A stretch of 64,000 nt of DNA from Candidatus Goldiibacteriota bacterium HGW-Goldbacteria-1 (GCA_002839855.1 PGYV01000002.1:203125-267124), one strand, 5' to 3'. Shown: positions 7,028-24,195, counted from the first letter of the stretch. A program made the numbers and translations. Notes: a model not told the origin generated them from the letters alone.

Positions 7028-7048
7028 AAAAATGAAAGGAGGGTCATA

Positions 7049-7327
7049 ATGGACAATGCAACGATAGTGGCGGTAGTTTCAATCATTACGGCAGGGGCGA
7101 CAATTACATTAGGGACAATGGTTCCCGCGTACGGCGAGATGAAAGCGCTGATAAAGGCGCTTGAATCAATTACGCAGCAGCCGGATGCTTCAAATGTGTT
7201 AAGCAGAAACCTTTTTGTGGGGCTTGCCATGATTGAATCGCTGGCAATTTACTGCCTTGTAATTTCAATAATTCTTATATTTACAAATCCGTTCTGGAAT
7301 TTCATGACAACAGCCGGAGGAAAGTAG
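7049..7327 (+). CDS. atpE: ATP synthase F0 subunit c
   Basis: 92-aa hairpin proteolipid. Helix 2 reads 'GLAMIESLAIYCLV'. Helix 1 carries Glu in 'VPAYGEMKA'. Confidence 0.9.
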   Translation: MDNATIVAVVSIITAGATITLGTMVPAYGEMKALIKALESITQQPDASNVLSRNLFVGLAMIESLAIYCLVISIILIFTNPFWNFMTTAGGK

Positions 7328-7328
7328 G

Positions 7329-8111: not shown

Positions 8112-9660
8112 AAGTAAAAATATAAAAAGCACGCTTAATAATATGCTTGATTCCGTTTTTACAGAAGCGGAAAAGATAGCGGGTGAGAATTCCGCGTCAC
8201 TTTTACTGGGAGAGACCGGAACAGTAATTTCCGTGGGCAGGGGTATCGCATCCGTAAAAGGGCTGTTTAATGTGAAATCAGATGAACTTATAAGTTTTCC
8301 GGGAGGGTATTACGGAACTGCTTTTAATCTGGAACCGGATTATGTGTTAGTGGTGCTTCTGTCAAAAAGCGATGATATTTCCGCGGGTATGCAGGTAAAA
8401 AGAACAGGCAAAACAGTAAGCGTGCCTGTGGGCGAAGCGCTGCTTGGCAGGGTGGTTGACCCGCTTGGCAGGCCGCTGGATAACGGTGCTGAAATAGCGG
8501 CCGAAAAATGGTACCCGTCGGAAAGGCCGTCGCCGGTTATTATGGACCGCGCGCCGGTAAATATGCCGCTGCAGACAGGTATTACAGCGGTGGATGCGCT
8601 GATACCAATAGGCAGGGGGCAAAGGGAGCTTATTATAGGCGACAGGCAGACAGGCAAGACTGCAGTTGCCGTGGACACAATAATAAATCAGCGCGGCAAG
8701 AATGTGATATGCGTGTACTGCTCTATCGGGCAGCAGAATTCAGCCGCGGCAAAGGTAATTGCATCACTTAGAGACGCCGGGGCAATGGATTACACTTTTA
8801 TAGTTGTATCCGGAGGGGATGACCAGCCGGGAATGAATTTTCTGGCGCCGTATTCGGCGTGCTCTATGGCGGAATTTTTCATGGAGCAGGGAAAAGATGT
8901 ACTGATAGTATTTGACGACTTAAGCAAACACGCCCGTTCTTACAGGGAAATTTCCCTGTTGCAAAGGCGCCCGCCCGCAAGGGAGGCCTTCCCGGGCGAT
9001 ATTTTTTACATTCATTCGCGGCTGCTTGAAAGGGCAACTCACCTGTCCGCGGAAAAAGGGGGCGGCTCGCTTACCGCGCTTCCTGTGGTGGAAACAGAGG
9101 CGCAGAATATTGCGGCGTATATCCCCACAAATCTTGTCTCCATAACAGATGGGCAGATATACCTGTCGCCTAAACTATTTCAGCAGTCGGTCCTGCCTGC
9201 CGTGGATGTGGGCAAGTCTGTATCACGCGTTGGCGGTGCGGCGCAGCTTCCGGCTTTCAGAAAAACAGCAGGCGACCTTAAACTTTCATATTCCCAGTTT
9301 GAAGAGCTTGAAATTTTTGAAAGGTTTTCAACCAAACTGGATGACCGGACAAAACAGTCGCTGCTGCGCGGCCACAGAATACGCGCCGTTTTAAAACAGC
9401 AGCAGAATAACCCCGTATCTGTTATGGGGCAGATAGCGCTTTTAACCGCAGTTAATAACGGGGTGTTTGATGAAATTGCCGAAAACGCCGTGCCGGCAGC
9501 CGCGGATATTGTAAGGCAAAAGGCAGAGGCGGAATTAAAAACAATCTCGGAGAAGATACTGGCAGGCAATGAAATCACTCCGGAAGATAATATTATAATT
9601 CTGAATACTGTAAAAAAACTAATTTCAGAAAGCACAGGTAAAAACAATGCAGTCTCCTGA
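8104..9660 (+). CDS. atpA: ATP synthase alpha subunit
   Basis: P-loop 'GDRQTGKTAVAVDTIINQ'. The start codon was chosen at 'MDESKNIK', which has an RBS-like 'AAGGCGGA' upstream. The ORF-track start is 8068. Confidence 0.9.
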   Translation: MDESKNIKSTLNNMLDSVFTEAEKIAGENSASLLLGETGTVISVGRGIASVKGLFNVKSDELISFPGGYYGTAFNLEPDYVLVVLLSKSDDISAGMQVKRTGKTVSVPVGEALLGRVVDPLGRPLDNGAEIAAEKWYPSERPSPVIMDRAPVNMPLQTGITAVDALIPIGRGQRELIIGDRQTGKTAVAVDTIINQRGKNVICVYCSIGQQNSAAAKVIASLRDAGAMDYTFIVVSGGDDQPGMNFLAPYSACSMAEFFMEQGKDVLIVFDDLSKHARSYREISLLQRRPPAREAFPGDIFYIHSRLLERATHLSAEKGGGSLTALPVVETEAQNIAAYIPTNLVSITDGQIYLSPKLFQQSVLPAVDVGKSVSRVGGAAQLPAFRKTAGDLKLSYSQFEELEIFERFSTKLDDRTKQSLLRGHRIRAVLKQQQNNPVSVMGQIALLTAVNNGVFDEIAENAVPAAADIVRQKAEAELKTISEKILAGNEITPEDNIIILNTVKKLISESTGKNNAVS

Positions 9661-10513
9661 GGAGGTAAAAAGAAAACTATCCGGGGCTGAATCTTTAAAG
9701 TCAATAGTGCGCACAATGAAGGTGCTTGCCGCGGTAAATGTCAGGCAGTATGAGAAGATGTCTGATGCTATTGACAGGTATAACGAAATTGTGGAAATGG
9801 GTTTCAGGGTGTTTTTGGGTAATGAAGAAAAAAATTATAATCCGGCGCCGGAAGAAGAAAACACCGGATATATTGTACTGGGTTCGGATATGGGCATGTG
9901 CGGAAGGTTTAATGACCAGATAGCAGCGTATGCTTTGGAAAAAACAGGTAATAATACAGATACAGTGATGGCGGTCGGCGACAAAGTTTCCGCCAAGCTG
10001 GAAGACGCAGGGGTTAAGCCGGCGGAAACTATTATTTATCCGGCAGTCCTGTCCGCGGGCATTGTGCCGCTTCTGCGGGAGATAATTCTTAAAATTGACG
10101 GGTGGCGGGAGACCAGAGGCATAAATTCCATAAGTGTATGCTATAACAAACCGGCAGATTCACTGTCGTACAATCCTGTTATGAAAAAGATTCTTCCCAT
10201 GGAGCCGGAATATCTGGAGCAGTTAAGAAAAAAAGAATGGAAATCCCGCAGCCTTCCTATATATAAAGAAGATAGGGAGAAGTTATTCTCCGGCCTTGTT
10301 AAGAATTATATTTATGTAGCGCTATACAGGGCGTTTGTGGAATCGCTTGTAAGCGAAAACACGGCAAGGCTTATTTCCATGCAGGCGGCGGAAAAACATA
10401 CCGCAGAACGCATAGAGGAGCTGACACTGGAATACAACATGGAACGCCAGGACGCCATCACCTCTGAAATCCTTGACATCATCGCCGGCGCAGAAGCGGT
10501 GGAAGGGAAGTAA
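9647..10513 (+). CDS. atpG: ATP synthase gamma subunit
   Basis: 288 aa. Last gene of the operon. Its C-terminal 'ITSEILDIIAGAEAV' is gamma-like. Confidence 0.8.
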   Translation: MQSPEEVKRKLSGAESLKSIVRTMKVLAAVNVRQYEKMSDAIDRYNEIVEMGFRVFLGNEEKNYNPAPEEENTGYIVLGSDMGMCGRFNDQIAAYALEKTGNNTDTVMAVGDKVSAKLEDAGVKPAETIIYPAVLSAGIVPLLREIILKIDGWRETRGINSISVCYNKPADSLSYNPVMKKILPMEPEYLEQLRKKEWKSRSLPIYKEDREKLFSGLVKNYIYVALYRAFVESLVSENTARLISMQAAEKHTAERIEELTLEYNMERQDAITSEILDIIAGAEAVEGK

Positions 10514-10515
10514 AA

Positions 10516-10929
10516 AAAGCGATTTAAGCTATAAGCAGTTAAGCATAAGCGATAGCTATGATTTTGTAGTGGTTTATTTTTTTTCTTTGAATTTGTAGGG
10601 ATAGCGCTCCCGCGCTGTCCGCGTATTTGATTTGTCCTGGTAGACGCGGGTCTTCAGCCCGCGGCAGTTGGTTTGTATTTAATGTTTGTATTTATATTTA
10701 TATTTATATTTGTATTTGTATTTGTATTGGTATTGGTATTGGTATTGGTAGACGCGGGTCTTCAGCCCGCGGTAGTTGATTTGTATTTAATGTTTGTATT
10801 TGCCATGGTAGGCGAACCCTTTAGGGTGCGGCAGTTGTTCTTGAACGGTCTGCCTTGTCGCCGTTCTTCCGTCCCTCGGTTCTACTGACCTTCCAAGCCT
10901 CTAACCATCCAAGCCTCCAAGCATCTCTC
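10516..10929. repeat. Composite intergenic repeat, copy 2. Contains the 'aagctataagcagttaagcataagc' module, two REP-like hairpins, a microsatellite and the 'CCAAGCCT' module
   Basis: GTAGACGCGGGTCTTCAGCCCGCGG occurs at 10639 and 10747. A second hairpin CGAACCCTTTAGGGTGCG occurs at about 10815. The CCAAGCCT tail spans 10861-10929. Confidence 0.75.
10661..10741. repeat. Compound hexanucleotide microsatellite (TATTTA)n(TTTGTA)n(TTGGTA)n
   Basis: Directly visible as tttatatttatatttatatttgtatttgtatttgtattggtattggtattggtattgg. Confidence 0.9.
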
Positions 10930-10944
10930 AAGATAAAAATTCCC

Positions 10945-10973
10945 TTGCCAAACCTCCGCCACAGCCATATAAT
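10945..10973 (+). promoter_or_regulatory. sigma70-like promoter TTGCCA-N17-TATAAT with a conserved roughly 110-nt leader. Duplicated at 16937
   Basis: -35 TTGCCA, a 17-bp spacer and -10 TATAAT. The next roughly 110 nt are near-identical to 16966-17075. Confidence 0.55.
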
Positions 10974-11163
10974 ACCAATTGTGGCAGGGGTAATATAAAA
11001 GGAAGCGGAGGGAAGATGGAATTGGGAGCAAAAAATCGTTTTTCGTTTCTGCCTGTTATCAACAACAACTTCCCTAAAACTATGTTAAGTTTTGCCTATT
11101 TCGCGAATTTATATTCAAATTCCAAACGCAAGGGTATGGATAATAACGAGTTTTTTGTTCTGA

Positions 11164-11190
11164 TTTCAAGGTCTGGTATGAGATTATTAT
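11164..11190 (+). promoter_or_regulatory. Conserved upstream element TTTCAAGGTCYGGYAYGRG-TTATTAT (copy 1 of 4)
   Basis: Lies 25-50 nt upstream of the 11215 start codon. Paralogous copies occur at 13996, 15609 and 17141. Confidence 0.5.
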
Positions 11191-11214
11191 TTTGAATTAG
11201 GGAGGTTTTTGCGA

Positions 11215-12471
11215 ATGGCTAAAAATATTTCTTTTATAAGTATGCTGCGAGTAGTTGTTCGATTACATTCTAAAGGTATTGTCTGCGCGTTTTTATTAAT
11301 TTCAGTATCAACTATGGTATGCATTTCCTGTTCCAGACACTTAAGCCCGCCTGCTATTTCAACATCTCCGGTAACGCAGGTTCCAACTGCGGCTATTTCG
11401 GGTACTGTCTCTGCTGCGGCTTCTCATACTTTTACAAATACAGATACACCTGTTGTTTTTTACACAAATACAGAAACAAGTACGTTTACAATGACAGATA
11501 CATTTACACCAACTCGAACGGCAACAAATACCAAAACTCCTATTCCAACACTGTCTTCGGCGCAGATAATAGCCACGCAGACTGTAGTTGCGGAAATGGT
11601 GGCAGTCCCCGGGGGTACGTTTACGCAGGCGGATTCATATGGAAATTACAGTTTCGTTCACACAATTTCACCATTTAAGATTGCAAAATATGAACTTACT
11701 TATGATCTTTGGTATAAAGTGTATGATTGGTCCAGACAATCGGGTAATTATGTATATGCAAGTAATTACAGTGTCAGTGAAGGTTTTATAGGAACAACTA
11801 AACAACCGACCAACGCGAGATTTCAACCGGCTTATGGCATGTCCTGGTATGATGCAATCATTTGGTGTAATGCTTATAGTGAACTGGCAGGATTGACACC
11901 TGTTTACTATAAAGATCCTGCATTTCTTATTCCGCATAATGTTTCAAAGATAATATATCCACCAGATATTGATCCAACTCCCGGGAGTATTGATTATCCG
12001 TATGTGAAATGGGATGCAAATGGATATAGGTTACCTACATATGGAGAATGGCAATACGCGGCAAGGTATATTGACGGAACCAGTTGGCTTCCAACCAATT
12101 ACGCAAGTGGAGCGGCGGATTTTGAATATAACAGTTATGCAACAATGGCTGTTGCGTGGTGCGTGGAAAATTCAGATTATTATACGCATATTGTAGGTTT
12201 GTTGATCCCAAATGCACTGGGGATTTATGATATGTCCGGAAATGTTTCAGAGTGGTGTTGGGATTGGGGTAATACTTATTTCCCGAATACGCCGAAAGTA
12301 AATTACAGGGGACCGGATGTCTGTAGCCTGATAAATCCGGGACGAATAATAGCGGGTTCTTATTTTACTATCAGTTCTTTTGATTCCGGTGTTCATTATC
12401 TCAGTTGGAGTGATTTATTCTATGGGAACATGGGTGGTGCAGTAACAATAAGACTTGTCAGATCAAACTGA
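11215..12471 (+). CDS. Secreted lipoprotein with a Thr-rich linker and a C-terminal FGE-sulfatase (SUMF1-like) domain
   Basis: Lipobox-like 'MVCISC'. Low-complexity 'TNTDTPVVFYTNTETSTFTMTDTFTPTRTATNTKTP'. FGE-family motifs 'GYRLPTYGEWQYAARY' and 'YDMSGNVSEWCWDW'. Confidence 0.75.
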   Translation: MAKNISFISMLRVVVRLHSKGIVCAFLLISVSTMVCISCSRHLSPPAISTSPVTQVPTAAISGTVSAAASHTFTNTDTPVVFYTNTETSTFTMTDTFTPTRTATNTKTPIPTLSSAQIIATQTVVAEMVAVPGGTFTQADSYGNYSFVHTISPFKIAKYELTYDLWYKVYDWSRQSGNYVYASNYSVSEGFIGTTKQPTNARFQPAYGMSWYDAIIWCNAYSELAGLTPVYYKDPAFLIPHNVSKIIYPPDIDPTPGSIDYPYVKWDANGYRLPTYGEWQYAARYIDGTSWLPTNYASGAADFEYNSYATMAVAWCVENSDYYTHIVGLLIPNALGIYDMSGNVSEWCWDWGNTYFPNTPKVNYRGPDVCSLINPGRIIAGSYFTISSFDSGVHYLSWSDLFYGNMGGAVTIRLVRSN

Positions 12472-12520
12472 CGGTGTTTTTTACTTTTAAATCGCGTTTC
12501 TAACATATAAAAGGGGTGTT

Positions 12521-13846
12521 TTGATGAGAGTGGCTGCAATCATACCGGTTTTGATAGTATTAATAGAGGGATGTACTGCTCACAGAGCGCCGTCACCTGT
12601 CACTGCGGTGGTGATTCCTGCTGAAAGTGTTACAGTTACCGCGACATATACTTTGACAGCAGTAAGCACGCATACGCCTGCGGCTTCTATCAGCCCGACA
12701 CATACCCCCGCTGCCACTGCCACTGCCACTGCTACTCCGGGATGTTTTGTTGTCACGTTTGCCGATCCTAATTTAGAACAACTTATTAGAGCGAAGATTG
12801 CTAAGTATAGTGGAGACATATATAACTGTGATCTGGCAGGGATTTATGAAATTGATGTGGTTTTTGAAATTTATGATTTATCGGGTTTGGAATATTGTAC
12901 AAATGTAAAATATTTAGATCTTGACTTTTTTAAGGGGAATACTTTAGCGCAGTTGGCTACTATGAAGCAATTAGTAAATATACACATTCACGGCAAAGGT
13001 CAGGTGATAGATATAACGTCATTAAGTGAATGCACGATTTTATCAACGTTAAAACTAATAAACGTTGACATATCCGGCACTGTAAGTTCAATTAGTAATT
13101 TGTTTAATCTGGTGGTTTTAGATCTTGATTCTGAGTCTTTACCAAATCTTTCGGCTTTATCAGCGCTTACAAAACTTGTATATCTAAGTGTTTCTGCCTC
13201 GAATTTAAGTGATATTTCGGCCATTTCGGGATTAACGAATGTAGAGTATTTGGATATTGTTGCCGGCGGAATTACTTCTTTATCCGTTTTAAGCGGATTA
13301 GATTTACGTGAATTTTCATTTACTCATCTCCCAAGATACATAAGAAGGTCAATAGTATCAGATCTTTCGCCTTTTGCAGGCATGACAAATCTGGAGATTT
13401 TTAGAGTGTCGGGTGCTGAAATTACCGATATTTCTCCTTTGTCTAATTGTACGTCTTTGATTAATCTTACTATTAATGATACGCTTATTACCAACCTTAA
13501 CGCGTTATCTGCTTTGTCAAATCTTCAAGATGTTACTCTTTGGGAAAATATAAATCTTGATGATATAAGCGGCCTTGCAAATTCTAAAAGTATTTCCGAC
13601 CTTTCTATTATTGGTTCGAAAGTATCAGATATAAGTGCTATATCTACTATGTCTTGTTTATTTTCGATTGACCTGCCTAATAATATGATAACGGACATAC
13701 ATCCCATTGTGTTAAATGCGCAGGATAGTTCGTGTGGACAGAGTCCTTATAGTATTTTCTTGACAGGCAATCCGCTAAGTGCCGCGGCATTAGCAGACAT
13801 AGAATTGCTTGAAAATACTTACGGGGTAAGTGTCATGTATGAATAA
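12521..13846 (+). CDS. Leucine-rich-repeat (internalin-like) lipoprotein with a Thr/Ala-rich linker
   Basis: Signal/lipobox 'LIVLIEGC'. Repeated 'L..L..L..LDLS...I.DIS.LS.L.NL' units, for example 'ITDISPLSNCTSLINLTINDTLITNLNALSALSNLQDVTL'. Confidence 0.75.
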   Translation: MMRVAAIIPVLIVLIEGCTAHRAPSPVTAVVIPAESVTVTATYTLTAVSTHTPAASISPTHTPAATATATATPGCFVVTFADPNLEQLIRAKIAKYSGDIYNCDLAGIYEIDVVFEIYDLSGLEYCTNVKYLDLDFFKGNTLAQLATMKQLVNIHIHGKGQVIDITSLSECTILSTLKLINVDISGTVSSISNLFNLVVLDLDSESLPNLSALSALTKLVYLSVSASNLSDISAISGLTNVEYLDIVAGGITSLSVLSGLDLREFSFTHLPRYIRRSIVSDLSPFAGMTNLEIFRVSGAEITDISPLSNCTSLINLTINDTLITNLNALSALSNLQDVTLWENINLDDISGLANSKSISDLSIIGSKVSDISAISTMSCLFSIDLPNNMITDIHPIVLNAQDSSCGQSPYSIFLTGNPLSAAALADIELLENTYGVSVMYE

Positions 13847-13854
13847 AAACGGTG

Positions 13855-13890
13855 GCAGACATTGGAAGTAAAATGTCTGCTTGATATTGT
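13855..13890 (+). terminator. Hairpin terminator candidate after the LRR gene
   Basis: GCAGACAT-N10-ATGTCTGC followed by a T-rich stretch. Confidence 0.45.
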
Positions 13891-13995
13891 TTCCCAAATT
13901 GCACTCTAGCTCTTTGTGGGGTAGGTAAAACATATAATTAGGAAAAAGGCATAAGTCTGTCAGGCGGAAATGGGTTATTAATTATTTATTTCAAC

Positions 13996-14024
13996 TTTAA
14001 AGATTTGGTATGGGCACTTTAATA
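13996..14024 (+). promoter_or_regulatory. Conserved upstream element (copy 2 of 4), diverged: TTTAAAGATTTGGTATGGGCACTTTAAT
   Basis: Same position relative to the start codon. Preceded by the conserved block 'GGTAAAACATATAAT..GGCATAAG.CTGTCAG.CGGAAAT', which is shared with 15540-15600. Confidence 0.45.
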
Positions 14025-14047
14025 CTATATTTATGCGGGAGGCTGAT

Positions 14048-14884
14048 ATGCGGCTGAATCGTTATTTTTTTGTTATGTTTTTTGTGTTTATATTTGTTAT
14101 TTCCGCGCAGTCAAAAGATGCTGCTTATTATATGAAAGCGGGAATAGAAAGGGATGGTTCAGGAGATGATAGAGGAGCTTTAAAAAATTATAATCAGGTT
14201 ATTAAATTAGATCCTTCAAATGCAAAGGCGTATTCGTACCGCGGTGTAATTGAAGAAAGAGCCGGCAAGTTAAAAGAAGCGCTTATTGATTTTGATAAAG
14301 CGGTGGCTTTAGATCCTGATTTTGCGGATGCACATTTTAACAGGGGTGTAGTATTAGATAAACTTAAGCAATATGAAAAGGCCTTAAAAGCATATGATAA
14401 AGCAATAGAATTAGAACCCAAAATGGCATCTGCATACTTTAACCGTGGAAATGTAAAAGTTTCTATTAATAACCTTAAATCAGCAATAAAAGATTACAGC
14501 ATGGCAATACAAATTAATCCCAAATATATCGGCGCATATTATAACAGAGGCAGTGCCAGAGATAAAAATGGAGAGTTAAAATTGGCTTTGGCAGATTTTG
14601 ATGAGATACTTAAATTAAATGAAAATATAGCAGAAGCATATGTTAAACGCGGAAAAATCAAAATGAAACTAAACGACTATAACGGAGCAGTTGATGATTT
14701 TAGTGTTTTGATAACAGGTTATCAGGGGCCGCCTGATGAGTATATTTCTGAATTGTACTTTCTTCGCGGTTTTTGTTTTGAGAAACTGGCTAAATATAAA
14801 AATGCAATACGCGATTTTGAACTGTCAGCGGAATTTGGTTCGGCAGATGCAAAAGAACATCTGGTCAATTTAAAAGGGAAGTAA
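14048..14884 (+). CDS. TPR-repeat protein, secreted
   Basis: Signal peptide 'FFVMFFVFIFVISAQS'. About seven TPR units ('AKAYSYRGVIEERAGKLKEALIDFDKAVALDP' and similar). Start chosen at the second ATG, which follows a GGGAGG RBS. Confidence 0.75.
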   Translation: MRLNRYFFVMFFVFIFVISAQSKDAAYYMKAGIERDGSGDDRGALKNYNQVIKLDPSNAKAYSYRGVIEERAGKLKEALIDFDKAVALDPDFADAHFNRGVVLDKLKQYEKALKAYDKAIELEPKMASAYFNRGNVKVSINNLKSAIKDYSMAIQINPKYIGAYYNRGSARDKNGELKLALADFDEILKLNENIAEAYVKRGKIKMKLNDYNGAVDDFSVLITGYQGPPDEYISELYFLRGFCFEKLAKYKNAIRDFELSAEFGSADAKEHLVNLKGK

Positions 14885-14930
14885 AACGTGTCTTAACTCT
14901 TGCATGGCAGGGTGAAAACGTAACAGGAGA

Positions 14931-15479
14931 ATGATGGCGAATAAAAAGCGGATTTCTGCGGATAAAACTAAAAAGAGAGCAAAAAAAGCAGATAAAACGA
15001 AGGCAAAAAAGGCCATACCCGCGGTTAAACCGCCGGGGCAAAACCGCGGCGTTGCCATAAAGAAAACGCCTGTTTTGCTTGTAATACTTTTTCAGTTAAT
15101 TACTCTTGGTATTTATTATCCTATATGGTTTTTGCGCAGGATGAAAAGTTTTAATAAAATGGCAAAAATTACAGGGGAAGTGGAAATATCCAAAGCGGCG
15201 CTAGTCTTTGCACTGGTTCTTGAAATTTTATCTGCGGTTGCGGTGCTATTTGGTTCACGTGCGGGTATTTTTTCACTTATTACATTTATTTTGCTCACAG
15301 TTCAGGCTTTTAGAAGCAGAAGGATTATGGTTTCGTACCAGAAGATGCATAAAATAAAACTGGTAATGCCGGGTTTAGCGGTATTTTTTATTTCACCGTA
15401 TTATCTGCAGTATGAGATTAACAGATTGAATATTAAGATAGGGACAAGGCGTAAAAAAAATACCCGTATCAGATCATAG
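14931..15479 (+). CDS. Small membrane protein with a Lys-rich N-terminus
   Basis: 'KKRISADKTKKRAKKADKTKAKKA' followed by about 3 TM helices. Confidence 0.45.
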   Translation: MMANKKRISADKTKKRAKKADKTKAKKAIPAVKPPGQNRGVAIKKTPVLLVILFQLITLGIYYPIWFLRRMKSFNKMAKITGEVEISKAALVFALVLEILSAVAVLFGSRAGIFSLITFILLTVQAFRSRRIMVSYQKMHKIKLVMPGLAVFFISPYYLQYEINRLNIKIGTRRKKNTRIRS

Positions 15480-15608
15480 GATAAGAAAGCATAAATTTTA
15501 TTGTGTAATATTTTATTCCGAACTGCAGTTTCGTTCTTTGTGTGGCAGGGTAAAACATATAATAATAAAATGGCATAAGCCTGTCAGACGGAAATTATCT
15601 TCCGGGAC

Positions 15609-15649
15609 GGTTTTACTTTCTGGTTTCAAGATCCGGTACGGGTTATTAT
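15609..15649 (+). promoter_or_regulatory. Conserved upstream element (copy 3 of 4) GGTTTTACTTTCTGGTTTCAAGATCCGGTACGGGTTATTAT
   Basis: Near-identical to 17141-17181. Confidence 0.5.
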
Positions 15650-15686
15650 ATTGCTGTTATGAAAATCGAGATACAGGAGGGTATGA

Positions 15687-16889
15687 ATGAAGAATATTTT
15701 AATAACGTTTATATTTTTGGTTATGGGCATTATTCCTGCCATTGCTTTGGAAAAACCGAATAATTCCAAGGCTGTAGATGAAAAGATGGAAAAGATAAGG
15801 ACGATGGAAGATAAAACGATTCAAATGAAACTCGGCAGGTCATATATCGCAGAACTGGATGGTATGATTCAAAAAGACGCCAAAAATCCTGAACTTTTCT
15901 ATAAAAAAGGAAATGTTTATTTTTATATAGAGGATGATGCAAACGCCATAAAGTTCTTTTCCGAGGCCATTTCTCTGTCTCCTGCGGTTTCTGTTTATCA
16001 CTTTAAAAAAGGAATATCACTGTATTATCTTAGGGACATTGACGGTTCCATAAAAGAGTTAAAAACATCAGCTGAGTTGGATAAGAAGTGCGAAGAATGT
16101 TTTTATGAGTTGGGCTGCAGATACTCTGAAAAAGATGATTTTGCGAACGCTGAAGCGGCTTTTAAATCGGCGCTCAGGATAAATCCGGAATTTCCGGATG
16201 CTATGTCGAAGCTTGGCGGATTATATGCGGAAAAGAGAATGTATGAAAAAGCACTTCCGTTTTTCAGGGAAATAGTTAAACGCAGGCCTGAAAATGTAAG
16301 TGATTTATATAACCTGGGGGTGGTACTGCAGCAGCTAAGGAATAATAAAGAGGCAGCAGACTGTTTTTCGGCTGTTGTCAAGAAAAACAAAGAAGACTGG
16401 CAGGCGATAGCAAAACTTTTACAGATAAGCCAGTCAGCTGACCGCGATGAAGAAGTGAATAAATATATGAAAATGCTTTTTGCGCTATATAGGGCGGGAA
16501 AAGTAGGTAAGGATTCATTTTGCAGGGAACAAATATGGGCTGGTGATGTACAGATAGTAGTTATGCAGGCCTTTGAGTTAAAAGGCGAATTTGCCAAACC
16601 GTATGTATTTCTTTTGACCGACTCTAAGACAGGCAGGACGCTTTATGAACTTAGTCTGGAGTCGTTTGAAGCAGACACGCAGATTGCCAGAGAGACCGGA
16701 CAGATAAAAAAAGATGAGAGGGTATATACGTATGATTATCATGATACTTCTGACGGTGATTTTCACGGTACTCTTGGGATAGTGAACAAAAAACCGGAAT
16801 ATAAGAAATTAAGGAAAATTATGCTTGGATTTGTTGATAGCAAAAATAAAGGAACACTTAAATTTGTAAGTTCTACCGTTACAAAATGA
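15687..16889 (+). CDS. TPR-repeat protein, secreted
   Basis: Signal peptide 'ILITFIFLVMGIIPAIA'. TPR units ('AEAAFKSALRINPEFPDAMSKLGGLYAEKRMYEKALPFF'). Confidence 0.7.
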   Translation: MKNILITFIFLVMGIIPAIALEKPNNSKAVDEKMEKIRTMEDKTIQMKLGRSYIAELDGMIQKDAKNPELFYKKGNVYFYIEDDANAIKFFSEAISLSPAVSVYHFKKGISLYYLRDIDGSIKELKTSAELDKKCEECFYELGCRYSEKDDFANAEAAFKSALRINPEFPDAMSKLGGLYAEKRMYEKALPFFREIVKRRPENVSDLYNLGVVLQQLRNNKEAADCFSAVVKKNKEDWQAIAKLLQISQSADRDEEVNKYMKMLFALYRAGKVGKDSFCREQIWAGDVQIVVMQAFELKGEFAKPYVFLLTDSKTGRTLYELSLESFEADTQIARETGQIKKDERVYTYDYHDTSDGDFHGTLGIVNKKPEYKKLRKIMLGFVDSKNKGTLKFVSSTVTK

Positions 16890-16936
16890 ATTTAACAGGA
16901 TTGACCCCGAGCTGCTGCTTTTAATAAAAAATACCA

Positions 16937-16965
16937 TTGCCAAATACCTGTTATCGCCATATAAT
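16937..16965 (+). promoter_or_regulatory. sigma70-like promoter TTGCCA-N17-TATAAT plus conserved leader (copy 2)
   Basis: Paralog of 10945-10973. The leader 16966-17075 is about 95 percent identical to 10974-11084 apart from a 1-nt indel. Confidence 0.55.
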
Positions 16966-17140
16966 ACCAATTGTGGAAGGGGTAATATAAAAGGAATCGG
17001 AGGGAAGATGGAATTGGGAGCAAAAATCGTTTTTCGTTTCTGCCTGTTATCAACAACAACTTCACAATAACTTTGTTTATTTTTGCCTATTTTGCGAATC
17101 TAAATTCGATTTCCAAAAGCAAAGTTATGAATAATTACTT

Positions 17141-17181
17141 GGTTTTACTTTCTACTTTCAAGGTCCGGCACGGGTTATTAT
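17141..17181 (+). promoter_or_regulatory. Conserved upstream element (copy 4 of 4) GGTTTTACTTTCTACTTTCAAGGTCCGGCACGGGTTATTAT
   Basis: Lies 68 nt upstream of the GHKL ATPase gene start. Confidence 0.5.
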
Positions 17182-17248
17182 TCATAAATTATGTAAGTTG
17201 TAATAGTAAATAGTTTATATAAAATGGTTTTGTATGGAGGCGGAGTAT

Positions 17249-19660
17249 ATGAGTAACGAAGATTTATTCTGGGAGTTTTATCGTGCGTCTGGAGAAAATG
17301 AAATTCATAATATTCTTGAAAAACACGATTTAATGAATAACAATTCTTTTTGGTTTCCATATGGGGGTAAGACGATTGATGATAGAAATAATTTTGGTAC
17401 GTTTGAAAGTCAGCAAGCAAATCCGATACCCGCTTTAATAGAAAAAATTACAAATTCTATTGACTCGCTATTGATGTTAAAATGCATAGAAAATGGTGTT
17501 GATCCGAAAAGTAAACTAGCTCCTAAGACAATGGAAGAGGCGATAGAAAAATATTTTAACATAAAAGATGGCGATTTTAGTGAGATAGGTAGAAATGTTA
17601 GGCGAAATATAGCTGAAGAAATACAAGTGATAGCTACTGGTGACAAACAAAGTCCTGACATTACTGTATATGATTGCGGCGAAGGTCAGTTACCAGAGAA
17701 GTTTAAAGATACATTTGTTTCGTTGTTGAAAGGAAATAAGAATGATGTACCATTTGTTCAAGGTAAATATAATATGGGTTCAACTGGAGCGGTAATTTTC
17801 TGTGGTAATAAGAAATATCAATTGATTGGGTCGAAATTAAATAAAACTATTGGTAGTTCTGAAAGTCCATTTGGATTTACATTAGTGCGTAGGCATCCAT
17901 TAACGGAAGAAGAAGAAAGCAAATATAAAAGTAGTTGGTATGAATATTTGGTTATTGAAAATGAAATACCAAGCTTTAATTGTGGCGAACTTGATTTAGG
18001 TCTGTATAATAGAAAATTCGAGTGTGGTTCAATTATTAAAATGTTTTCATATGGATTGCCAAGAGGGGCTCGTTCATCTGTGGTATGGGATTTGTGGAGA
18101 GAATTGAATCAGTTTCTATATCATCCAGCACTGCCGTTTCTTGTTTATGAAAAAAGAGGATATGATAATAAAACTCCGTCAAAACTAGTTCTTGGTAATA
18201 AGATCCGGTTAATTCTTGATGAAAGAGACAAAAAAGAAAAAACGATAACTACAAAAATCATTGATGAAAGATTTGGTGAAATTCCAATAGAAGTTCATGT
18301 GTTTAAAAATGATGTGAATCAAACTGAGTTTATCAACGGCAAAGCATTGATTTTTACTGTAAATGGACAGGTTCAGGGTTATGAAAAAAGAAACTTTATT
18401 TCAAGTGAGTTAAATTTCCCTATGTTGAAAGATCATATGCTTGTTAGGGTTGATTGTACAAATATAAGGACTTCTATACGAACGGATTTATTTAAGTCTT
18501 CTAGAGATAGATTGAATGAAAGTGTTTTAACGGAAGAATTTCTTGATAAAATTATAAATGTTTTAAAAGGCAATGAAGAATTAAGGAAAATTAACCAGGA
18601 AAGAAAGAATTCTATTTTACGACAAAATGCAGATGATAAGAAGTTATTTGAAGATATTATAACAAGAATGCCTCTGCAAAATGATTTTATTAAAATGTTT
18701 ACACAGTCAAATGATTTTAATTTTGATCTTAAAAATATAAATAAGAAACATGATAGGACTGATTCGTCTGATGGAAGTGAGAAAACTAAAAAGCCGATTG
18801 AGTCGAAAAGATTTCCTTCGATTTTCAAAGTTCAATTAAAAGATAATAACAATAAAGATAAAATTAAGACAATACCCATAAACGGAAAAGGTGTTATCAA
18901 TTTTGAAACCGATGTTGAAGATGAGTATTTGTTTAGGCCTAAAGATAAAGGCGAACTAAGAATTGGAATATTAAATTATAAAAGCAATAATGCCGACGGT
19001 GGAACGGAAGCAAAGCCAACCAAGATTGAAGAACTATTGGATGTCACTCTTAGCGGACCAACGGATAATGCAATTAAAGCGACTTTTGAACCTAAGGCGA
19101 AATTAAATGTTGGTGATGAAATTCAAATAAGCACTACGCTAACATCTCCTTCGGGGGATTTGGAATGTATTTTCTACATTAAAATTATAGATCCTCAGAA
19201 TTTGCAAGATAATAATTCAAAGAATAAAGACAAAGAAAGTCTTAACCTACCTTTGCCAATAAAAGTATTTGAAAACAAAGACAAAGACGATGATAGGACG
19301 TGGAGTGATTATGGTTGGGATGGCAATGATATTGTAAAGATAATAACTGATAATGAAAATAAAGAAAAAAAATTGATTGAGGGTATAGCGATAAATATGG
19401 ACAGTTTTGTAATCAAAAGATATATTTCTAAAAATAAAGTTATTACTTCAAGTGATCTGGTATTAACAAAGAATAGATACTTCCTTTCTGTTTATTGGCA
19501 TAGTATTTTTCTGTTTAAATTTCTTGAGAATATTTTTAAAGCCGAAGAATATCAAGAATTACCAGAAGATGTTGAGGAGATAGTAGCGCAATTGATGCAG
19601 TTTTATTCAGAATTTTTATTATCTTTTGGTATGTTAGGAGAGAGTTTAAATCAGGATTAA
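17249..19660 (+). CDS. Large (about 800 aa) GHKL/Bergerat-fold ATPase-domain protein with a K/N/D-rich C-terminal region. Candidate defence protein A
   Basis: N-box 'ALIEKITNSIDSL' (E-x3-N-x2-D). G1 box 'ITVYDCGEGQ' (D-x-G-x-G). G2-like 'QGKYNMGSTGAV'. Start chosen after 'GGAGGCGGAGTAT'; the alternative start is 17234. No signal peptide. The gene is AT-rich. Confidence 0.55.
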   Translation: MSNEDLFWEFYRASGENEIHNILEKHDLMNNNSFWFPYGGKTIDDRNNFGTFESQQANPIPALIEKITNSIDSLLMLKCIENGVDPKSKLAPKTMEEAIEKYFNIKDGDFSEIGRNVRRNIAEEIQVIATGDKQSPDITVYDCGEGQLPEKFKDTFVSLLKGNKNDVPFVQGKYNMGSTGAVIFCGNKKYQLIGSKLNKTIGSSESPFGFTLVRRHPLTEEEESKYKSSWYEYLVIENEIPSFNCGELDLGLYNRKFECGSIIKMFSYGLPRGARSSVVWDLWRELNQFLYHPALPFLVYEKRGYDNKTPSKLVLGNKIRLILDERDKKEKTITTKIIDERFGEIPIEVHVFKNDVNQTEFINGKALIFTVNGQVQGYEKRNFISSELNFPMLKDHMLVRVDCTNIRTSIRTDLFKSSRDRLNESVLTEEFLDKIINVLKGNEELRKINQERKNSILRQNADDKKLFEDIITRMPLQNDFIKMFTQSNDFNFDLKNINKKHDRTDSSDGSEKTKKPIESKRFPSIFKVQLKDNNNKDKIKTIPINGKGVINFETDVEDEYLFRPKDKGELRIGILNYKSNNADGGTEAKPTKIEELLDVTLSGPTDNAIKATFEPKAKLNVGDEIQISTTLTSPSGDLECIFYIKIIDPQNLQDNNSKNKDKESLNLPLPIKVFENKDKDDDRTWSDYGWDGNDIVKIITDNENKEKKLIEGIAINMDSFVIKRYISKNKVITSSDLVLTKNRYFLSVYWHSIFLFKFLENIFKAEEYQELPEDVEEIVAQLMQFYSEFLLSFGMLGESLNQD

Positions 19661-19696
19661 TTAATATGGAATCTAAATAAGGAACAGAAAGATAAA

Positions 19697-19726
19697 TTGA
19701 CAGTAGAAATGCACAAAGCTTATAAT
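19697..19726 (+). promoter_or_regulatory. Consensus sigma70 promoter TTGACA-N18-TATAAT upstream of the DGQHR/GIY-YIG gene
   Basis: 'ttgacagtagaaatgcacaaagcttataat' sits in the 237-bp A-B intergenic gap. Confidence 0.55.
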
Positions 19727-19897
19727 TACATTAATGTTTTAGGGAGTAATTATATAGCAATATGACATTCGAAATAACATTAAGAAAGAGTTCTAAAACT
19801 TATTTTTCAAAACGAATAGATCCAAAAGAAAAAATTCTTATTTATCAGATAGAATGTGATTTTATTCGAAAGTATAAAATTTGGAGGTTTATTAAAT

Positions 19898-21415
19898 ATG
19901 GAAAAATTTCATTATCCCGCAATAAGATTAAAACAATTTAATACCGAATTATACCTAACAAGTCTTTCTGCTGAAAGTGTAGCATATTTAGTTAATCAAA
20001 AATCATTAATCGTCGACAAATATCAAAGAGGCGAAGAAGATTCTTATCAAAGGAACGAAGATCATAGTAAGATTAGAGAACTTGCTGACTTTTTAAGATT
20101 ATATAAGAATGATGATATTGTAAAGCCGATTTTGCCAGCATCAATCATCATTAATGTCCCCGACAGTTCTAACCTAACTTTTGATGAAAAAAACGGCCAA
20201 ATTATTCTTGATAAAAAAGCAAAATTGAATATCGTAGATGGGCAGCATCGAGTCAAGGCTGTTTGTAAAGCTTATAGCGATGGAATCGCAGATGATTTCG
20301 AAGTACCAGTTACATTTATCAAAGGGTTAAAACGCATTCATGAAGCGGCTCAGTTTTTAATTATCAACGTTAAACAAAAACAAGTTAGAACCGATTTAAC
20401 CATGACCATATTGCATGAAATGAATGTACAAACGAACCAACTTGCAACGAAATTGAGAAAAATACTTAAAGTAGATGGATGGCAGATTGAAGCGACCGCC
20501 ATCGCTATTGATGTAAATACCAGGCAAAGAAGTCCATGGTTTAATTTAATAATGAGGCCCAATGAATCAAAACAATCATTGAAAGAACTAGGGGTAAAAT
20601 GGGTACCTATCAAACAGGCTTCATTTGTCGATTCACTCAGAAGATTTTGCGCTACAAATACTTCTAAAACGCTCGAGGAAAAGATCGCATTTTTAATTAA
20701 AACATGGAATTATCTTAAAAAAGAATACGCCCCTTCATTTGATTGCGAGACTGGGAATAATTATATGTTAACCAAAGGAACCGCGATAGGGCCAATACAT
20801 ATTTTTATGAGTTTGATGTATTCCATGGAAACCTGTGGTTTGTATGAAAATATCGAAGAAGTAATGACAACGTTTGTAAAAAAATATCCGTTAGAATTCT
20901 GGGAAAAGGGAAGCAAACACGCAGGATCATGGGGCACTTCGCAAAAAGAATATTATACACACGCAAAAGAAATTTCTGAAGTAATGTTTCCGGAATTGTA
21001 TTCTTTTTGGAACTCGGATTTATTAGAACATTATAGAAAAAAAGATTTAGTTGATGATGAAGTTCTTAATAGTATTGAGCATCTAATGGATCCTTTTTCG
21101 CTGAAACCATATACGGAAATAGAAGAATACATTAAAAACGATGTATCTGGTATATATTTATTAATAAATAAAAAACGAAATAAACTGAATATGTATGTTG
21201 GGCAAGCCGAAAGCATAAAGGACAGAGTTGCTGGTCATAATAGAGATTTCCTTGCTTTTAATTTCATCACTGTTAACGGCGAAGATCTAGACACGAGCGA
21301 AGCGCTCGTATATCATTTGATTAACAAAGAGTTTAGAACAAATACAATACATCCTCCTACTAAAAAATGTGAATTTTGCGAACACGATAAAAAACATAAG
21401 TCTAAGAAGAAATAA
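19898..21415 (+). CDS. DndB-like DGQHR-domain (ParB/Srx-fold) protein fused to a C-terminal GIY-YIG nuclease domain. Candidate defence protein B
   Basis: N-terminal 'YPAIRLKQFNTELYLTSLSAESVAYL' and 'KLNIVDGQHRVKAV' (DGQHR motif). C-terminal 'SGIYLLINKKRNKLNMYVGQAESIKDRVAGHNRD' (GIY...YVG...R...H, a GIY-YIG core). Terminal Cys/His cluster 'CEFCEHDKKH'. Start chosen at the ATG after a GGAGG RBS; the ORF-track start is 19856. Confidence 0.6.
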   Translation: MEKFHYPAIRLKQFNTELYLTSLSAESVAYLVNQKSLIVDKYQRGEEDSYQRNEDHSKIRELADFLRLYKNDDIVKPILPASIIINVPDSSNLTFDEKNGQIILDKKAKLNIVDGQHRVKAVCKAYSDGIADDFEVPVTFIKGLKRIHEAAQFLIINVKQKQVRTDLTMTILHEMNVQTNQLATKLRKILKVDGWQIEATAIAIDVNTRQRSPWFNLIMRPNESKQSLKELGVKWVPIKQASFVDSLRRFCATNTSKTLEEKIAFLIKTWNYLKKEYAPSFDCETGNNYMLTKGTAIGPIHIFMSLMYSMETCGLYENIEEVMTTFVKKYPLEFWEKGSKHAGSWGTSQKEYYTHAKEISEVMFPELYSFWNSDLLEHYRKKDLVDDEVLNSIEHLMDPFSLKPYTEIEEYIKNDVSGIYLLINKKRNKLNMYVGQAESIKDRVAGHNRDFLAFNFITVNGEDLDTSEALVYHLINKEFRTNTIHPPTKKCEFCEHDKKHKSKKK

Positions 21416-21562
21416 TTTTCAATCATTAAATTGATCGGATACTATTAACGAAATTACCAGTTAAAGTAATATCTGTGCCGGACATTAAAAAAGAAAGTAA
21501 ATTTATTGTTTGATTTTTCTTACGGAATGCAATCTGGGGCTTTGCGGGGAAGGGTTGGGTTA

Positions 21563-21760
21563 AAAAAGCGTTTTAAGCTATAAACAGTTAAGCAAAAGCA
21601 ATTTGACCTTTTGACCGGGTGGATAGTTAAAAATAATCTACTACCGCGGGCTGAAGACCCGCGTCTACCAGATCCAAACCAATCCTACAAGCAATCGAGA
21701 TGCCTTGCCCTTGCTTCCGTTCCTCTGTGCATCTGTCCCTCCGTCCCTCCGGTCTTACGG
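21563..21760. repeat. Composite intergenic repeat, copy 3. Contains an atpG-3'-end-like segment, the 'aagctataaacagttaagc' module, an inverted REP hairpin and the GTCCCTC module
   Basis: 21541-21602 resembles 10490-10557, including the last codons of atpG. CCGCGGGCTGAAGACCCGCG at 21641-21669 is the reverse complement of the 10639 hairpin. 21711-21760 resembles 3781-3830. Confidence 0.7.
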
Positions 21761-21872
21761 CTTTCATAAAAATCCCTTTACAAAATCAATTTTTTCTGTA
21801 AAATACTCCGAAAGTGTTTTTCTGCGCTAAAACTGTGTTTTATAAACACTATACTTCTTGAAGGAGGAACAG

Positions 21873-24167
21873 ATGGAAAACATCGCACTAAGCCCGTTGA
21901 CAGGTTCAGAACTCAACATGATCTGGATCATCTGGGGCATCGCTCTTGTGGCAATTGTGTACGGATTTATCCTGATGAAAGAAATCAATGCAAAAGATTC
22001 AGGAACAGCCAAAATGATCGAAATTAATAACGCGATCATGGAAGGCGCAAACGCTTATCTTGCAAGGCAGTTTAAGACAGTTGCATTACTTGTTGTAGTT
22101 CTGGCAGTGGTTCTTTATTTCACAGGTACTGCGGCAGACCCGGCAGTAAACCTTGGAAGGGCAATTGCTTTTGTACTTGGTGCAACAGCATCGGCTCTTA
22201 CAGGATTCATGGGAATGAGAATGGCAGTTAAAGGAAACGTAAGGGTTGCAGCGGCATCTTTAAAAGGCAAAGTGGAAGCGCTTACAATCGCGTTCAGGAC
22301 AGGCGCTATTGCAGGTATGTTCACAATCGGACTTGGCCTTCTTGGCGCGACAACAATATTCCTTATCTATAAAGAAAACCTTTCCGAAGTCCTTGTAGGA
22401 TTCGGATTCGGCGGATGCTTGCTTGCCATGTTCATGAGGGTAGGCGGCGGAATATACACAAAGGCAGCTGACGTTGGTGCTGACCTTGTTGGTAAAGTAG
22501 AAAAGAACATACCTGAAGACGATCCCAGGAACGCGGCTACAATCGCGGATAACGTTGGCGACAACGTAGGCGATTGCGCGGGTATGGCAGCAGACATATT
22601 TGAATCATACGAAGTAACACTTGTTGCTTCCATGGTTCTTGGCGCCACAGTATTCGGAAACATGGGTGTTATTTTCCCGCTTCTTCTCCGCGCTGTCGGT
22701 GTTATCACTTCAATCATCGGAACATATTTTGTAAGGGCAAAAAATGACAACGAACCGGCTATGAGGCCTATCAACAGGGGCTTTATAGTTTCTTCAGTAC
22801 TTTCAATAATCGGTTTTGCGATACTTACAGTAATGTATGTACAGGGAAGCATCTTCAACATCATGTCCACGGACGCAAAGTGGGCAAATGTTCTTGCGGC
22901 AAACCCGGACGCCAATGTTATTCTGGCGTGGAAGCTTTTTGGAATCACCACAATCGGTATCTTCCTGTCATTCGCTATTTCCGCAATGACGGAATACTTT
23001 ACATCAACAGAAACCAAACCTGTTCAGGAAATCGCGAAAGCGACCCTTACAGGCCCTGCAACAACAATCCTTTCCGGAACTGCTGAAGGAATGGAAAGCA
23101 GCGTATGGGCAATTCTTTCCATCGCTGTGGCAATTGCTTCTTCAATACTTGTATTCGCCATCAACCCGATAGGCGAAGGAATTCTTATTGTTGAACAGAC
23201 ACTTTACGGTGTATCGCTTCTTGGACTTGGTATGTTGACAATAACGGGTATCATTGTTGCTGAAGACACATACGGCCCTATTTCTGACAACGCTCAGGGC
23301 GTTGGCGAAATGGCAAAGCTTCCTGAAAAGGCACGTAAGGTTCTTGACGAACTTGACGCTGTTGGTAACTCCACAAAGGCTATCACAAAAGGTTTTGCAA
23401 TCGCGACTGCTGTTATCGCGGCTGTTTCACTTTTTGGTTCTTACAAAGAAATCACCGGAATGCATTACATCGACATAAGCAGCCCTATGGTTCTTATCGG
23501 ATTGCTTGTCGGCGGCGCGGTACCGTTCCTGTTCAGCTCGCTTTTAATCAGGGCTGTTGGAAGGGCGGCGTTCCTTGTTGTTAATGAAGTTCGCAGGCAG
23601 TTTAGGGAAATAAAGGGCATTATGTCAGGAAAAGCAAAACCGGAATACGGCAAAGTTGTTGACATCTGTACAACAGCGGCTTTAAAAGAACTTGTCGGAC
23701 CGGGGCTTATCGCTCTTCTTATGCCTGTTATAGTTGGTTTCTTATTTAAGGCTGAAGGACTTGGCGGATATCTGGCCGGCGTTATCGTTGTGGGTCAGCT
23801 TCTTGCCGTGTACCTGTCCAATTCGGGCGGCGCATGGGACAATGCCAAGAAATTCATTGAACAGGGCAATTACGGCGGCAAAGGTTCCGATGCTCACAGA
23901 GCAGCGGTTATCGGCGACACAGTAGGAGACCCGTTCAAAGACACAGCAGGACCGGCGTTAAACCCGCTTATCAAGGTTATGAACCTTGTGGCTATTCTTA
24001 TAGCGCCTCTTATCATCAAGAATCCGGGATACGGCCCGCAGGTTATAATAGTTGTTGTAATCTGCCTTGCAATCATCGGCACAGCCTTGTTCTTTTCCAA
24101 AAGGTCTGATGACAGCGGAATAGCTGATGAAGTTGCAAAAACAGTAAGCAAAGGCAAAAAGAAATAA
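21873..24167 (+). CDS. hppA: Membrane-bound proton-translocating pyrophosphatase (K+-independent type by motif)
   Basis: '[13 protein letters not shown]', '[22 protein letters not shown]' and '[10 protein letters not shown]' (Lys/Thr variant). An RBS AAGGAGG lies 5 nt before the ATG. Confidence 0.9.
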
Positions 24168-24195
24168 ACGGGATTTTTTCCGTAAGTAATAGAAA

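Follow-up and report, generated by a model that had tools for sequence, protein, structure and literature searches.

Accessory or defence hotspots and plasticity zones between conserved core genes are a known kind of locus. Their flanking genes are fixed, close relatives carry alternative cargo, and this cargo is low in GC, free of an integrase and rich in restriction-, nuclease-, ATPase- and toxin-antitoxin-type genes. The same was observed for the DNA between the N-ATPase operon, whose last gene is atpG, and the pyrophosphatase gene hppA in a stretch of 64,000 nucleotides from Candidatus Goldiibacteriota bacterium HGW-Goldbacteria-1 (GCA_002839855.1, PGYV01000002.1:203125-267124), here called the window. 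Synteny of the flanks is combined with differing cargo in close relatives and with an atypical composition of the cargo. In contrast to described chromosomal hotspots, the junctions are packed with lineage-specific repeats, the cassettes carry a common promoter and leader, and the locus belongs to an uncultured candidate phylum, from which three versions were sampled. With a probability of roughly 70%, positions 10553-21761 are the current content of a variable hotspot of Candidatus Goldiibacteriota between the N-ATPase operon and the hppA-ychF block, at least two parts of which vary independently, and its edge repeats belong to lineage-wide intergenic families and are not attachment sites from an insertion.

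Conserved genes on both sides anchor the comparison:

3955-10513, + strand: N-ATPase operon atpD-atpC-atpQ-atpR-atpB-atpE-atpF-atpA-atpG, left anchor (Pfam and synteny with species B)
21873-24167, + strand: hppA, Na+-translocating pyrophosphatase, opening the right anchor (Pfam and relatives)

The operon is complete: the genes of AtpQ and AtpR are included in the gene order of N-ATPases, and atpG (9647-10513) is the final gene. Along the source contig, the Pfam order ATP-synt_ab, ATP-synt_DE_N, ATPase_gene1, AtpR (weak), ATP-synt_A, ATP-synt_C, ATP-synt_B, ATP-synt_ab, ATP-synt was found (precomputed matches on the 685-kb JGI metagenome contig Ga0246094_000018, which contains the window). The subunits compared share 58-85% amino-acid identity with species B. 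The right anchor has the order hppA-ychF-...-aspS-...-phoH-ybeY-corC. Its hppA product is identical to PKL92643.1, and loci encoding this protein match the window at 100%. Synteny after hppA (ychF, aspS, phoH, ybeY, corC and others) is kept in all relatives examined, down to 74% hppA identity. The N-ATPase operon and the Na+-pyrophosphatase gene lie on the same strand; they are two sodium pumps with nothing except the variable interval between them. Species B has both in the same order on one contig, and the same repeat mosaic brackets the N-ATPase operon in both species.

The window represents version A1. It was compared with strain A2 (locus L093), with species B (L003, L034, L009 and L075) and with a relative of 92.5% identity (A', L083). 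Species B is the only other species with atpG and hppA on one contig; one scan of genome contigs with atpG gave a single relative. In its L003, the metagenome-assembled genome (MAG) JAKQNO010000032, atpG shows 70% amino-acid identity and the gene order GH9, LacI, LacI, N-ATPase is retained; the overlap of L003 with L034 is 100% identical, and L009 and L075 are in turn contiguous with L034. Nucleotide homology of species B to the window extends to 10552 and is restored from 21762 onwards, a short distance before the hppA promoter. Between atpG and hppA, a distance of 11.2 kb in the window, the reconstruction of species B from these loci has 23.2 kb with other genes: three 500-aa proteins, LacI, a 2097-aa protein, PhD/PIN, DUF4386, an FGE-sulfatase paralogue (47% identity), a methyltransferase, an aminotransferase, Gp49/HTH, NTase/HEPN, and proteins of 229 aa and 157 aa.

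Strain A2 is 98.1% identical to the window over 21498-26491, with the entire right-hand set of repeats included, and is thus the same species. Upstream of 21498 all seven genes of the window block are missing and are replaced by others (at least 8 kb). In order, these are a 339-aa secreted protein, a second set of REP2, REP, array and leader (elements described below), a 293-aa protein, a DpnII/MboI-like protein, a 690-aa DUF87 ATPase, a 193-aa protein, a promoter-bearing intergenic element (PLE) and a 200-aa protein. The leader of strain A2 is 91% identical to window 16927-17182, and homology ends at 17182. Strains A2 and A1 differ in two separate segments. The swapped cargo has a GC content of 0.312, equal to that of window 17183-21497. 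In the 92.5%-identical L083, again a different sequence lies directly upstream of 21763. The breakpoints of homology fall on repeat elements, namely on the end of the left TAAGC module D9L (10552), the inverted end of leader B (17182), a truncated PLE (21498) and the upstream edge of the hppA promoter (21762). Taken together, the comparison supports the block as accessory DNA, whose genes differ between close relatives. Neither strain A2 nor species B has the same block at this place; both carry other genes.

The block itself contains seven genes, five of which form its first part:

11209-12471, + strand: FGE-sulfatase-domain protein with signal- or lipoprotein-like N-terminus and Thr/Pro-rich linker, GC at third codon positions (GC3) 0.30
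12521-13846, + strand: leucine-rich-repeat (LRR) lipoprotein-like protein, GC3 0.30
14033-14884, + strand: secreted TPR protein 1, GC3 0.26
14931-15479, + strand: DUF4234 membrane protein
15687-16889, + strand: secreted TPR protein 2
17234-19660, + strand: 808-aa GHKL-type ATPase-like protein, GC 0.31
19856-21415, + strand: DGQHR (DndB-like) protein with C-terminal GIY-YIG nuclease, likely start 19898, GC 0.33

A reading made earlier from the sequence alone (the sequence-only reading) had described a block low in GC with A/T-ending codons and with FGE-sulfatase, LRR, two TPR, GHKL and DGQHR-GIY-YIG genes. Both descriptions were confirmed. Windowed GC is 0.29-0.39 across 11-22 kb and 0.43-0.49 in the flanks, and the GC3 of the seven genes is 0.24-0.37 versus 0.433 +/- 0.041 for the 46 other genes of the window (Mann-Whitney p = 4e-7), with z-scores of -3.2 or lower in five of the seven (range -3.2 to -4.7). 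Pfam and NCBIfam agree on FGE-sulfatase, LRR, the two TPR proteins and DGQHR with C-terminal GIY-YIG and add DUF4234; GHKL is reached via homologues with HATPase_c_3. GC also differs within the block, with 0.378 in the surface-gene part and 0.312 in the defence-type part. We propose that part 1 would consist of the five genes for secreted, surface or membrane proteins (11.2-16.9 kb, GC 0.38) and that part 2 would be a slot adjoining hppA for stand-alone defence-type genes (17.2-21.5 kb, GC 0.31), filled here with the GHKL-type and the DGQHR-GIY-YIG gene.

Low GC could also stem from gene function or expression, if the block were an ancestral, fast-evolving cluster of secreted proteins with ordinary repeats in its spacers and not foreign DNA. 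A second stretch of the window, at 53-58 kb, is low in GC as well (0.35-0.39), and species B has both the FGE-sulfatase paralogue of 47% identity and a mostly native GC in its interval. This explanation is very improbable in our view, as none of the seven genes is present in a 98%-identical strain, where others take their place, the GC3 z-scores reach -3.2 to -4.7, and the nearest relatives of the GHKL and DGQHR genes outside Goldbacteria are 57% and 51% identical, with GHKL relatives across phyla and relatives of both genes in mobile or defence contexts.

At the edges of the block, three kinds of short repeats are found: TAAGC modules, hairpins of the repetitive extragenic palindromic (REP) type and 8-nt arrays:

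10510-10553, + strand: D9L, the TAAGC module on the left, immediately following the stop codon of atpG
10595-10622, + strand: second REP type (REP2), GTAG then palindrome GGATAGCGC-TCCC-GCGCTGTCC, DNA fold -8.6 kcal/mol, z = -3.0
10640-10664, + strand: REP-type hairpin copy 1 (GTAGACGCGGGTCTTCAGCCCGCGG)
10672-10750, + strand: hexamer array or microsatellite, TTTGTA grading into TTGGTA, 13 copies, between the tandem REP copies
10748-10772, + strand: REP-type hairpin copy 2, duplicated in tandem with copy 1 as part of a 64-nt unit, 92% identity
10807-10830, + strand: REP variant GTAGGCGAACCCTTTAGGGTGCGG that shares the GTAG head and the CAGTTG tail but has another stem sequence, which still pairs
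10853-10933, + strand: 8-nt periodic arrays, GTCCCTCN then CCAAGCCT
21559-21602, + strand: right TAAGC module D9R, kept in strain A2
21644-21668, - strand: REP-type hairpin copy 3, inverted
21709-21760, + strand: GTCCCTC-type 8-nt array
3660-3867, + strand: third mosaic copy, upstream of atpD and outside the block (TAAGC 8-mers 3666-3688, inverted partner about 3722-3740, GTCCCTC array 3781-3811, CCAAGCCT array 3819-3867)

These repeats had been taken as one composite of 220-440 nt, copied at both ends with the hairpin inverted and beginning on the left with the last atpG codons. The 44-nt module, the inverted hairpin and the GTCCCTC-type arrays (10853-10885 and 21709-21765) are real, but the two ends share three short separate modules and no single long repeat: the global alignment is poor, and the CCAAGCCT module was not found at the right end. 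Over 44 nt, D9L and D9R agree at 89% of positions; from shuffled sequences, 0 such matches are expected. Both have a common AAAAAGCGNTTT prefix, which is missing from other copies of the TAAGC module. The hairpin GTAGACGCGGGTCTTCAGCCCGCGG has exactly three exact copies in the window, at 10640(+), 10748(+) and 21644(-), with 0 in shuffles; with their flanks the copies have arms of 43-49 nt at 84-91% identity. It folds as GTAG-A-CGCGGG-TCTTCA-GCCCGCG with a 7-bp GC stem (-9.3 kcal/mol, z = -2.7). For the TAAGC modules the fold was no better than in shuffles. The atpG-codon remnant postulated for the right end did not hold, as the PLE, in its promoter part, gives a better alignment to 21541-21558 than atpG does.

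Islands flanked by att sites at gene 3' ends share with this locus the position directly after a stop codon, a short direct repeat at both ends and an atypical composition. The sequence-only reading had an island inserted by recombination at a repeat element, without which atpG would directly neighbour hppA. Spelled out, a single island would have entered at the composite repeat after atpG, duplicated this repeat in the manner of attL and attR and separated atpG from a formerly adjacent hppA. The geometry fits such an event: D9L lies at the last conserved left base (10552/10553), D9R falls within the conserved flank on the right, some 60 nt into it from the A1/A2 breakpoint, the AAAAAGCGNTTT prefix is common to just these two copies, and the block composition is atypical. 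Unlike att-flanked islands, the locus has no integrase, its repeat is dispersed and 89% identical, and its mosaic cargo varies in parts. No integrase, recombinase or transposase was found among the Pfam matches of the seven block proteins (10.5-21.8 kb). Nor were direct repeats specific to the ends detected. The copy of the TAAGC module in the unrelated locus L057 differs from D9L by 4 mismatches in 37 nt, equal to the difference between D9R and D9L. In species B, TAAGC arrays lie to the left of the interval and none to the right. The block is heterogeneous in GC and divided by duplicated leaders, strain A2 differs from A1 in two segments, and the supposed atpG relic is PLE-derived. An empty site with atpG adjoining hppA was found in none of the relative assemblies examined, a small sample in which most hppA contexts break 30-1360 nt upstream. 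The former adjacency of both genes is unsupported, and 23 kb lie between them in species B.

From the island proposal, the accessory nature of the DNA stood, as shown by the gap in homology to species B, the other genes of strain A2 and the composition. A single insertion at the repeat did not, and we regard it as quite unlikely. The repeats are not a signature of insertion, because they belong to dispersed families, the L057 copy is equally close, the right-hand composite persists unchanged in strain A2 despite other cargo, at least two parts vary and no mobility gene is present.

REP sequences are defined by a 5' GT(A/G)G tetranucleotide followed by a palindrome (PMC3686654). The GTAGACGCGGGTCTTCAGCCCGCGG hairpin agrees with this definition, and the types at 10595 and 10807 likewise have a GTAG head and a stem. 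In one scan of public metagenome contigs, 80 copies of the exact GTAGACGCGGGTCTTCAGCCCGCGG 25-mer were detected in 70 stretches, a number counted across metagenome stretches and not per genome, and the TG...CAGTTG frame was kept. The copies are numerous and almost all intergenic: 4% were located in open reading frames (ORFs) of at least 150 codons, versus 79% of random positions. REP2 was also found in species B and in L093. Most copies are single. Close inverted doublets of the REPIN type, about 95 nt apart, were observed in L004 (1042(+)/1162(-)) and L062 (178(+)/298(-)). The TAAGC module is dispersed as well, with TTAAGCTATAAGCAGTTAAGCATAAGCG-like copies at more than 10 other loci, often 50-120 nt from a REP. 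Species B has TAAGC tandem arrays of 43-50 nt, then inverted copies, on both sides of the N-ATPase operon, and a short 8-nt array on the upstream side. Since REP and TAAGC elements form dispersed families and the same mosaic recurs, the composite repeat consists of generic intergenic elements of the lineage in a combination that recurs.

With the REP, REPIN and bacterial interspersed mosaic element (BIME) systems and their associated transposase RAYT (PMC3686654, PMC3116915), the elements share the GTAG head with a GC-rich palindrome, the extragenic position and many copies, several types with a common head and frame, close inverted doublets and clusters at operon ends. In contrast to these systems, no RAYT was found in the sequence searched (a weak test), and the hairpins are combined with TAAGC modules and 8-nt arrays. 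REP, REPIN and BIME are best described in Proteobacteria, and the present phylum lies outside Proteobacteria.

The orientation of the REPs offers another explanation, in which units of REP(+), cargo and REP(-) are moved or opened by a RAYT- or IS200/IS605-type single-strand transposase and the REPs cause the turnover of cargo here and elsewhere. A REP(+) followed by a REP(-) brackets variable DNA in A1 (10640/10748 and 21644), in species B (L034 11786 and L009 728-752) and in strain A2 (L093 copies matched at about 66-93, about 1461-1489 and about 8077-8107). At 1484(+)/2519(-) of L067 (1484-2543, the same as L024 1948-3007), inverted exact REPs bracket a 244-aa ORF between serA and purA in the geometry of the window block. 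The REPIN-like doublets and the agreement with the REP definition fit this explanation too. Against it, Y1_Tnp is absent from the top families of the 110 ORFs adjoining REP copies (about 0.7 Mb covered, a weak test), and a tblastn search with a RAYT query gave nothing below E = 2 (about 0.7 Mb, likewise weak). Moreover, the bracketed cases are few and their orientation pattern could be chance, single REPs occur at many ordinary intergenic sites, and REPs are known to accumulate passively in permissive spacers. We consider transposition of REP-bracketed units unlikely.

Inside the interval, a second group of repeated elements precedes the genes:

10935-11190, + strand: leader A, sigma-70-like promoter TTGCCA-17-TATAAT (10945-10973) and about 215 nt of conserved 5' leader, degenerate terminal inverted repeat TIR(+) 11151-11179
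16927-17182, + strand: leader B, promoter 16937-16965, perfect TIR(+) 17143-17171
13846-14012, + strand: PLE copy a, intergenic and carrying a promoter, its inverted ends degenerate
15484-15650, + strand: PLE copy b, TIR(+) 15611-15639
21476-21545, + strand: truncated PLE, degenerate TIR(-) and remnant of the promoter region

Leaders A and B are a duplicated element of 260 nt, 84-88% identical, with 11 of 12 consensus matches in the promoter TTGCCA-17-TATAAT. The same leader stands before unrelated genes: FGE-sulfatase and GHKL in the window, the 293-aa gene in strain A2 and NTase/HEPN in species B. In the relatives it is located at L093 1673-1928 and L034 12082-12300 and is 77-91% conserved between species. 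A purine-rich/pyrimidine-rich hairpin around the GGAGGG motif of the leader is possible. The leader copies contain a small ORF with ATG at 11018 and 17009, which was discarded because they differ by a 1-nt indel that changes its reading frame and because species B lacks the ATG. Rfam gave no match at E <= 1 over 10000-22500; thus, none of leader, PLE and hairpins corresponds to a known RNA family. For the leader, the consensus fold yielded a covariation term of +0.44 with 3 compensatory pairs, obtained from four near-identical sequences that are too few and too similar to show covariation.

The PLE has about 170 nt, inverted ends of 29 nt and an internal promoter-like site; in the relatives it is found at L093 6955-7146 (A2) and L034 13126-13310 (species B). 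The motif TTTTACTTTCTACTTTCAAGGTCCGGCAC forms the end of both leaders and PLEs, and it recurs in inverted orientation behind the final gene of every cassette. All three versions (A1, A2, B) have copies of leader and PLE and the 29-nt inverted ends in their interval, and in these loci all copies of the TTTTACTTTCTACTTTCAAGGTCCGGCAC end motif lie inside the variable interval. One further copy, a TIR(-), was detected in L012 (about 305-345); otherwise the PLE was seen in this hotspot alone across about 660 kb sampled.

Correia elements of Neisseria are miniature inverted-repeat transposable elements (MITEs) that carry promoters. The PLE resembles this type in its length of about 170 nt, its terminal inverted repeats of about 29 nt, its position between genes and its promoter-like site. 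It differs in its confinement to this hotspot, except for the TIR(-) copy in L012, and in that no transposase was identified. The genes can equally be read as units flanked by inverted repeats, instead of the PLE as the element. Such units resemble the cassette arrays of integrons, which consist of unrelated single-function cassettes in one orientation with an imperfect inverted-repeat end and differ in content by strain. Integrons, in contrast, have an IntI integrase and attI/attC consensus sites, neither of which was found here, and their cassettes share a common Pc promoter, whereas here each cassette has its own.

The interval might be an integrase-less cassette array. Unrelated genes for surface proteins, toxin-antitoxin pairs and restriction or nuclease defence would be its units, each placed behind a leader with the 29-nt motif at its end and bounded at the finish by the inverted motif, with REP hairpins closing the array; leader and inverted ends would serve as landing pads for exchange and as a module for expression or RNA stability. 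A common role in expression or RNA stability is suggested because the 5' and 3' ends of a cassette transcript are complementary. This proposal is possible but rather doubtful.

The second part of the block deserves separate discussion because of its two defence-type genes. The 808-aa protein had no match in PADLOC, Pfam or NCBIfam. It belongs to a widespread family of more than 1600 members of about 800 aa, some with HATPase_c_3, which occur singly in mobile or defence surroundings; its assignment to GHKL is based on motifs found by eye (ExxxNSxDS, DCGEG, GxxGxG-like) and on HATPase_c_3 in homologues. The top match outside Goldbacteria is 57% identical; many members are Bacteroidota, and relatives are spread over other phyla. 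Three genomic contexts of the family were examined: an element with a serine recombinase and an NYN gene, a locus of Muriicola soli next to PglZ and KAP NTPase genes, and one with housekeeping neighbours. A DGQHR neighbour was found in none of the three.

The DGQHR-GIY-YIG gene has its own promoter match of 12/12 at 19697-19726. The fusion is rare and unannotated (15 clusters, top match 51% identical), and the neighbours of one homologue (L095 8001-9512) are DpnI, PLD-EVE and type III restriction-modification genes. For the generic DGQHR domain, 97.5 exceeds the cut-off of 58.85, but the scores remain below the equivalog cut-offs of DpdB (53.5 bits versus 300) and DndB (33.3 versus 328), and no dnd or dpd partner genes were detected by Pfam among the window proteins near it. 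Membership in the Dnd or Dpd systems is thus not indicated. The protein is a candidate for a stand-alone defence nuclease. A two-gene system of GHKL and DGQHR-GIY-YIG was rejected, since homologues of each are found without the other and a strong promoter match of its own precedes the second gene. Both genes are read as two independent single-gene cargo items of the defence-island type, a function that would follow from domains and neighbourhoods.

For the hotspot proposed here, the turnover of cargo may be described as follows. REP hairpins with GTAG head, TAAGC modules and 8-nt arrays would accumulate in the long spacers at operon ends, and each cassette would have a promoter-bearing leader or a PLE in front and an inverted 29-nt end behind. 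Cargo might be exchanged or lost by homologous recombination between junction elements and conserved flanks, as the breaks of homology at 10552, 17182, 21498 and 21762 suggest. One such event could be a swap between leader B and the right composite, another the deletion of DNA from one 260-nt leader to the other. Such turnover would require no dedicated recombinase.

Several points weigh against the hotspot reading. The comparison sample comprises two species and two strains. The interval of species B is mostly of native GC (0.45), so part of it may be old lineage-specific DNA and not a recent import. The contig of strain A2 begins inside REP2/REP, 96.6% identical to window 10586-10674; we infer from this match that its left end joins atpG, and the contig ends there. 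Recombinant intermediates were not seen at the junctions. Finally, all three exact REPs of the 64-kb window lie at the block edges, and inverted REP pairs bracket variable DNA in A1, A2 and B, which leaves room for a more active role of the REPs.

Other regions of the window also show variation or repeats. A second small variable spot was observed at 25398-27691, just downstream of ychF, with genes of 192 aa and 533 aa. This gene pair is missing in species B and different in the 92.5%-identical L083; the 533-aa gene contains a tandem repeat of 57 nt x 2 at 26378-26491. Within the low-GC stretch at 53-58 kb, a perfect 30-nt direct repeat (TCAGCCGCATGCGGGCAGCTTGCAGGGGAA, 53407-53436 and 57690-57719, spacing 4283 nt) surrounds genes of 358 aa and 1076 aa. 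A 7-nt tandem array of CTGTAAC with 13.6 copies and a perfect 21-nt super-period lies at 39908-40068 between two convergent genes and is a further case of short-period arrays filling spacers in this genome.

Assemblies are affected at the locus, too. One Logan contig of SRR3546451 ends at 10553 and one starts at 21645, and several other assemblies break 30-1360 nt upstream of hppA or just after atpG. Either repeats or strain heterogeneity may cause this fragmentation of MAGs between atpG and hppA.

To our knowledge, based on a narrow literature search, no description of the genome dynamics of Candidatus Goldbacteria has been published. The locus documents an accessory or defence hotspot and a REP-type repeat family in this lineage. 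It thus adds a case from an uncultured phylum to two known kinds, accessory/defence hotspots and REP-type repeats. The common promoter and leader of the cassettes together with their inverted ends may be the only part that represents new biology. For the analysis of islands in general, repeats at island edges can be generic intergenic elements, and reading them as att sites would mislead the calling of boundaries. Furthermore, the repeats may break short-read assemblies exactly at this locus, and such hotspots would thereby be hidden in MAGs.

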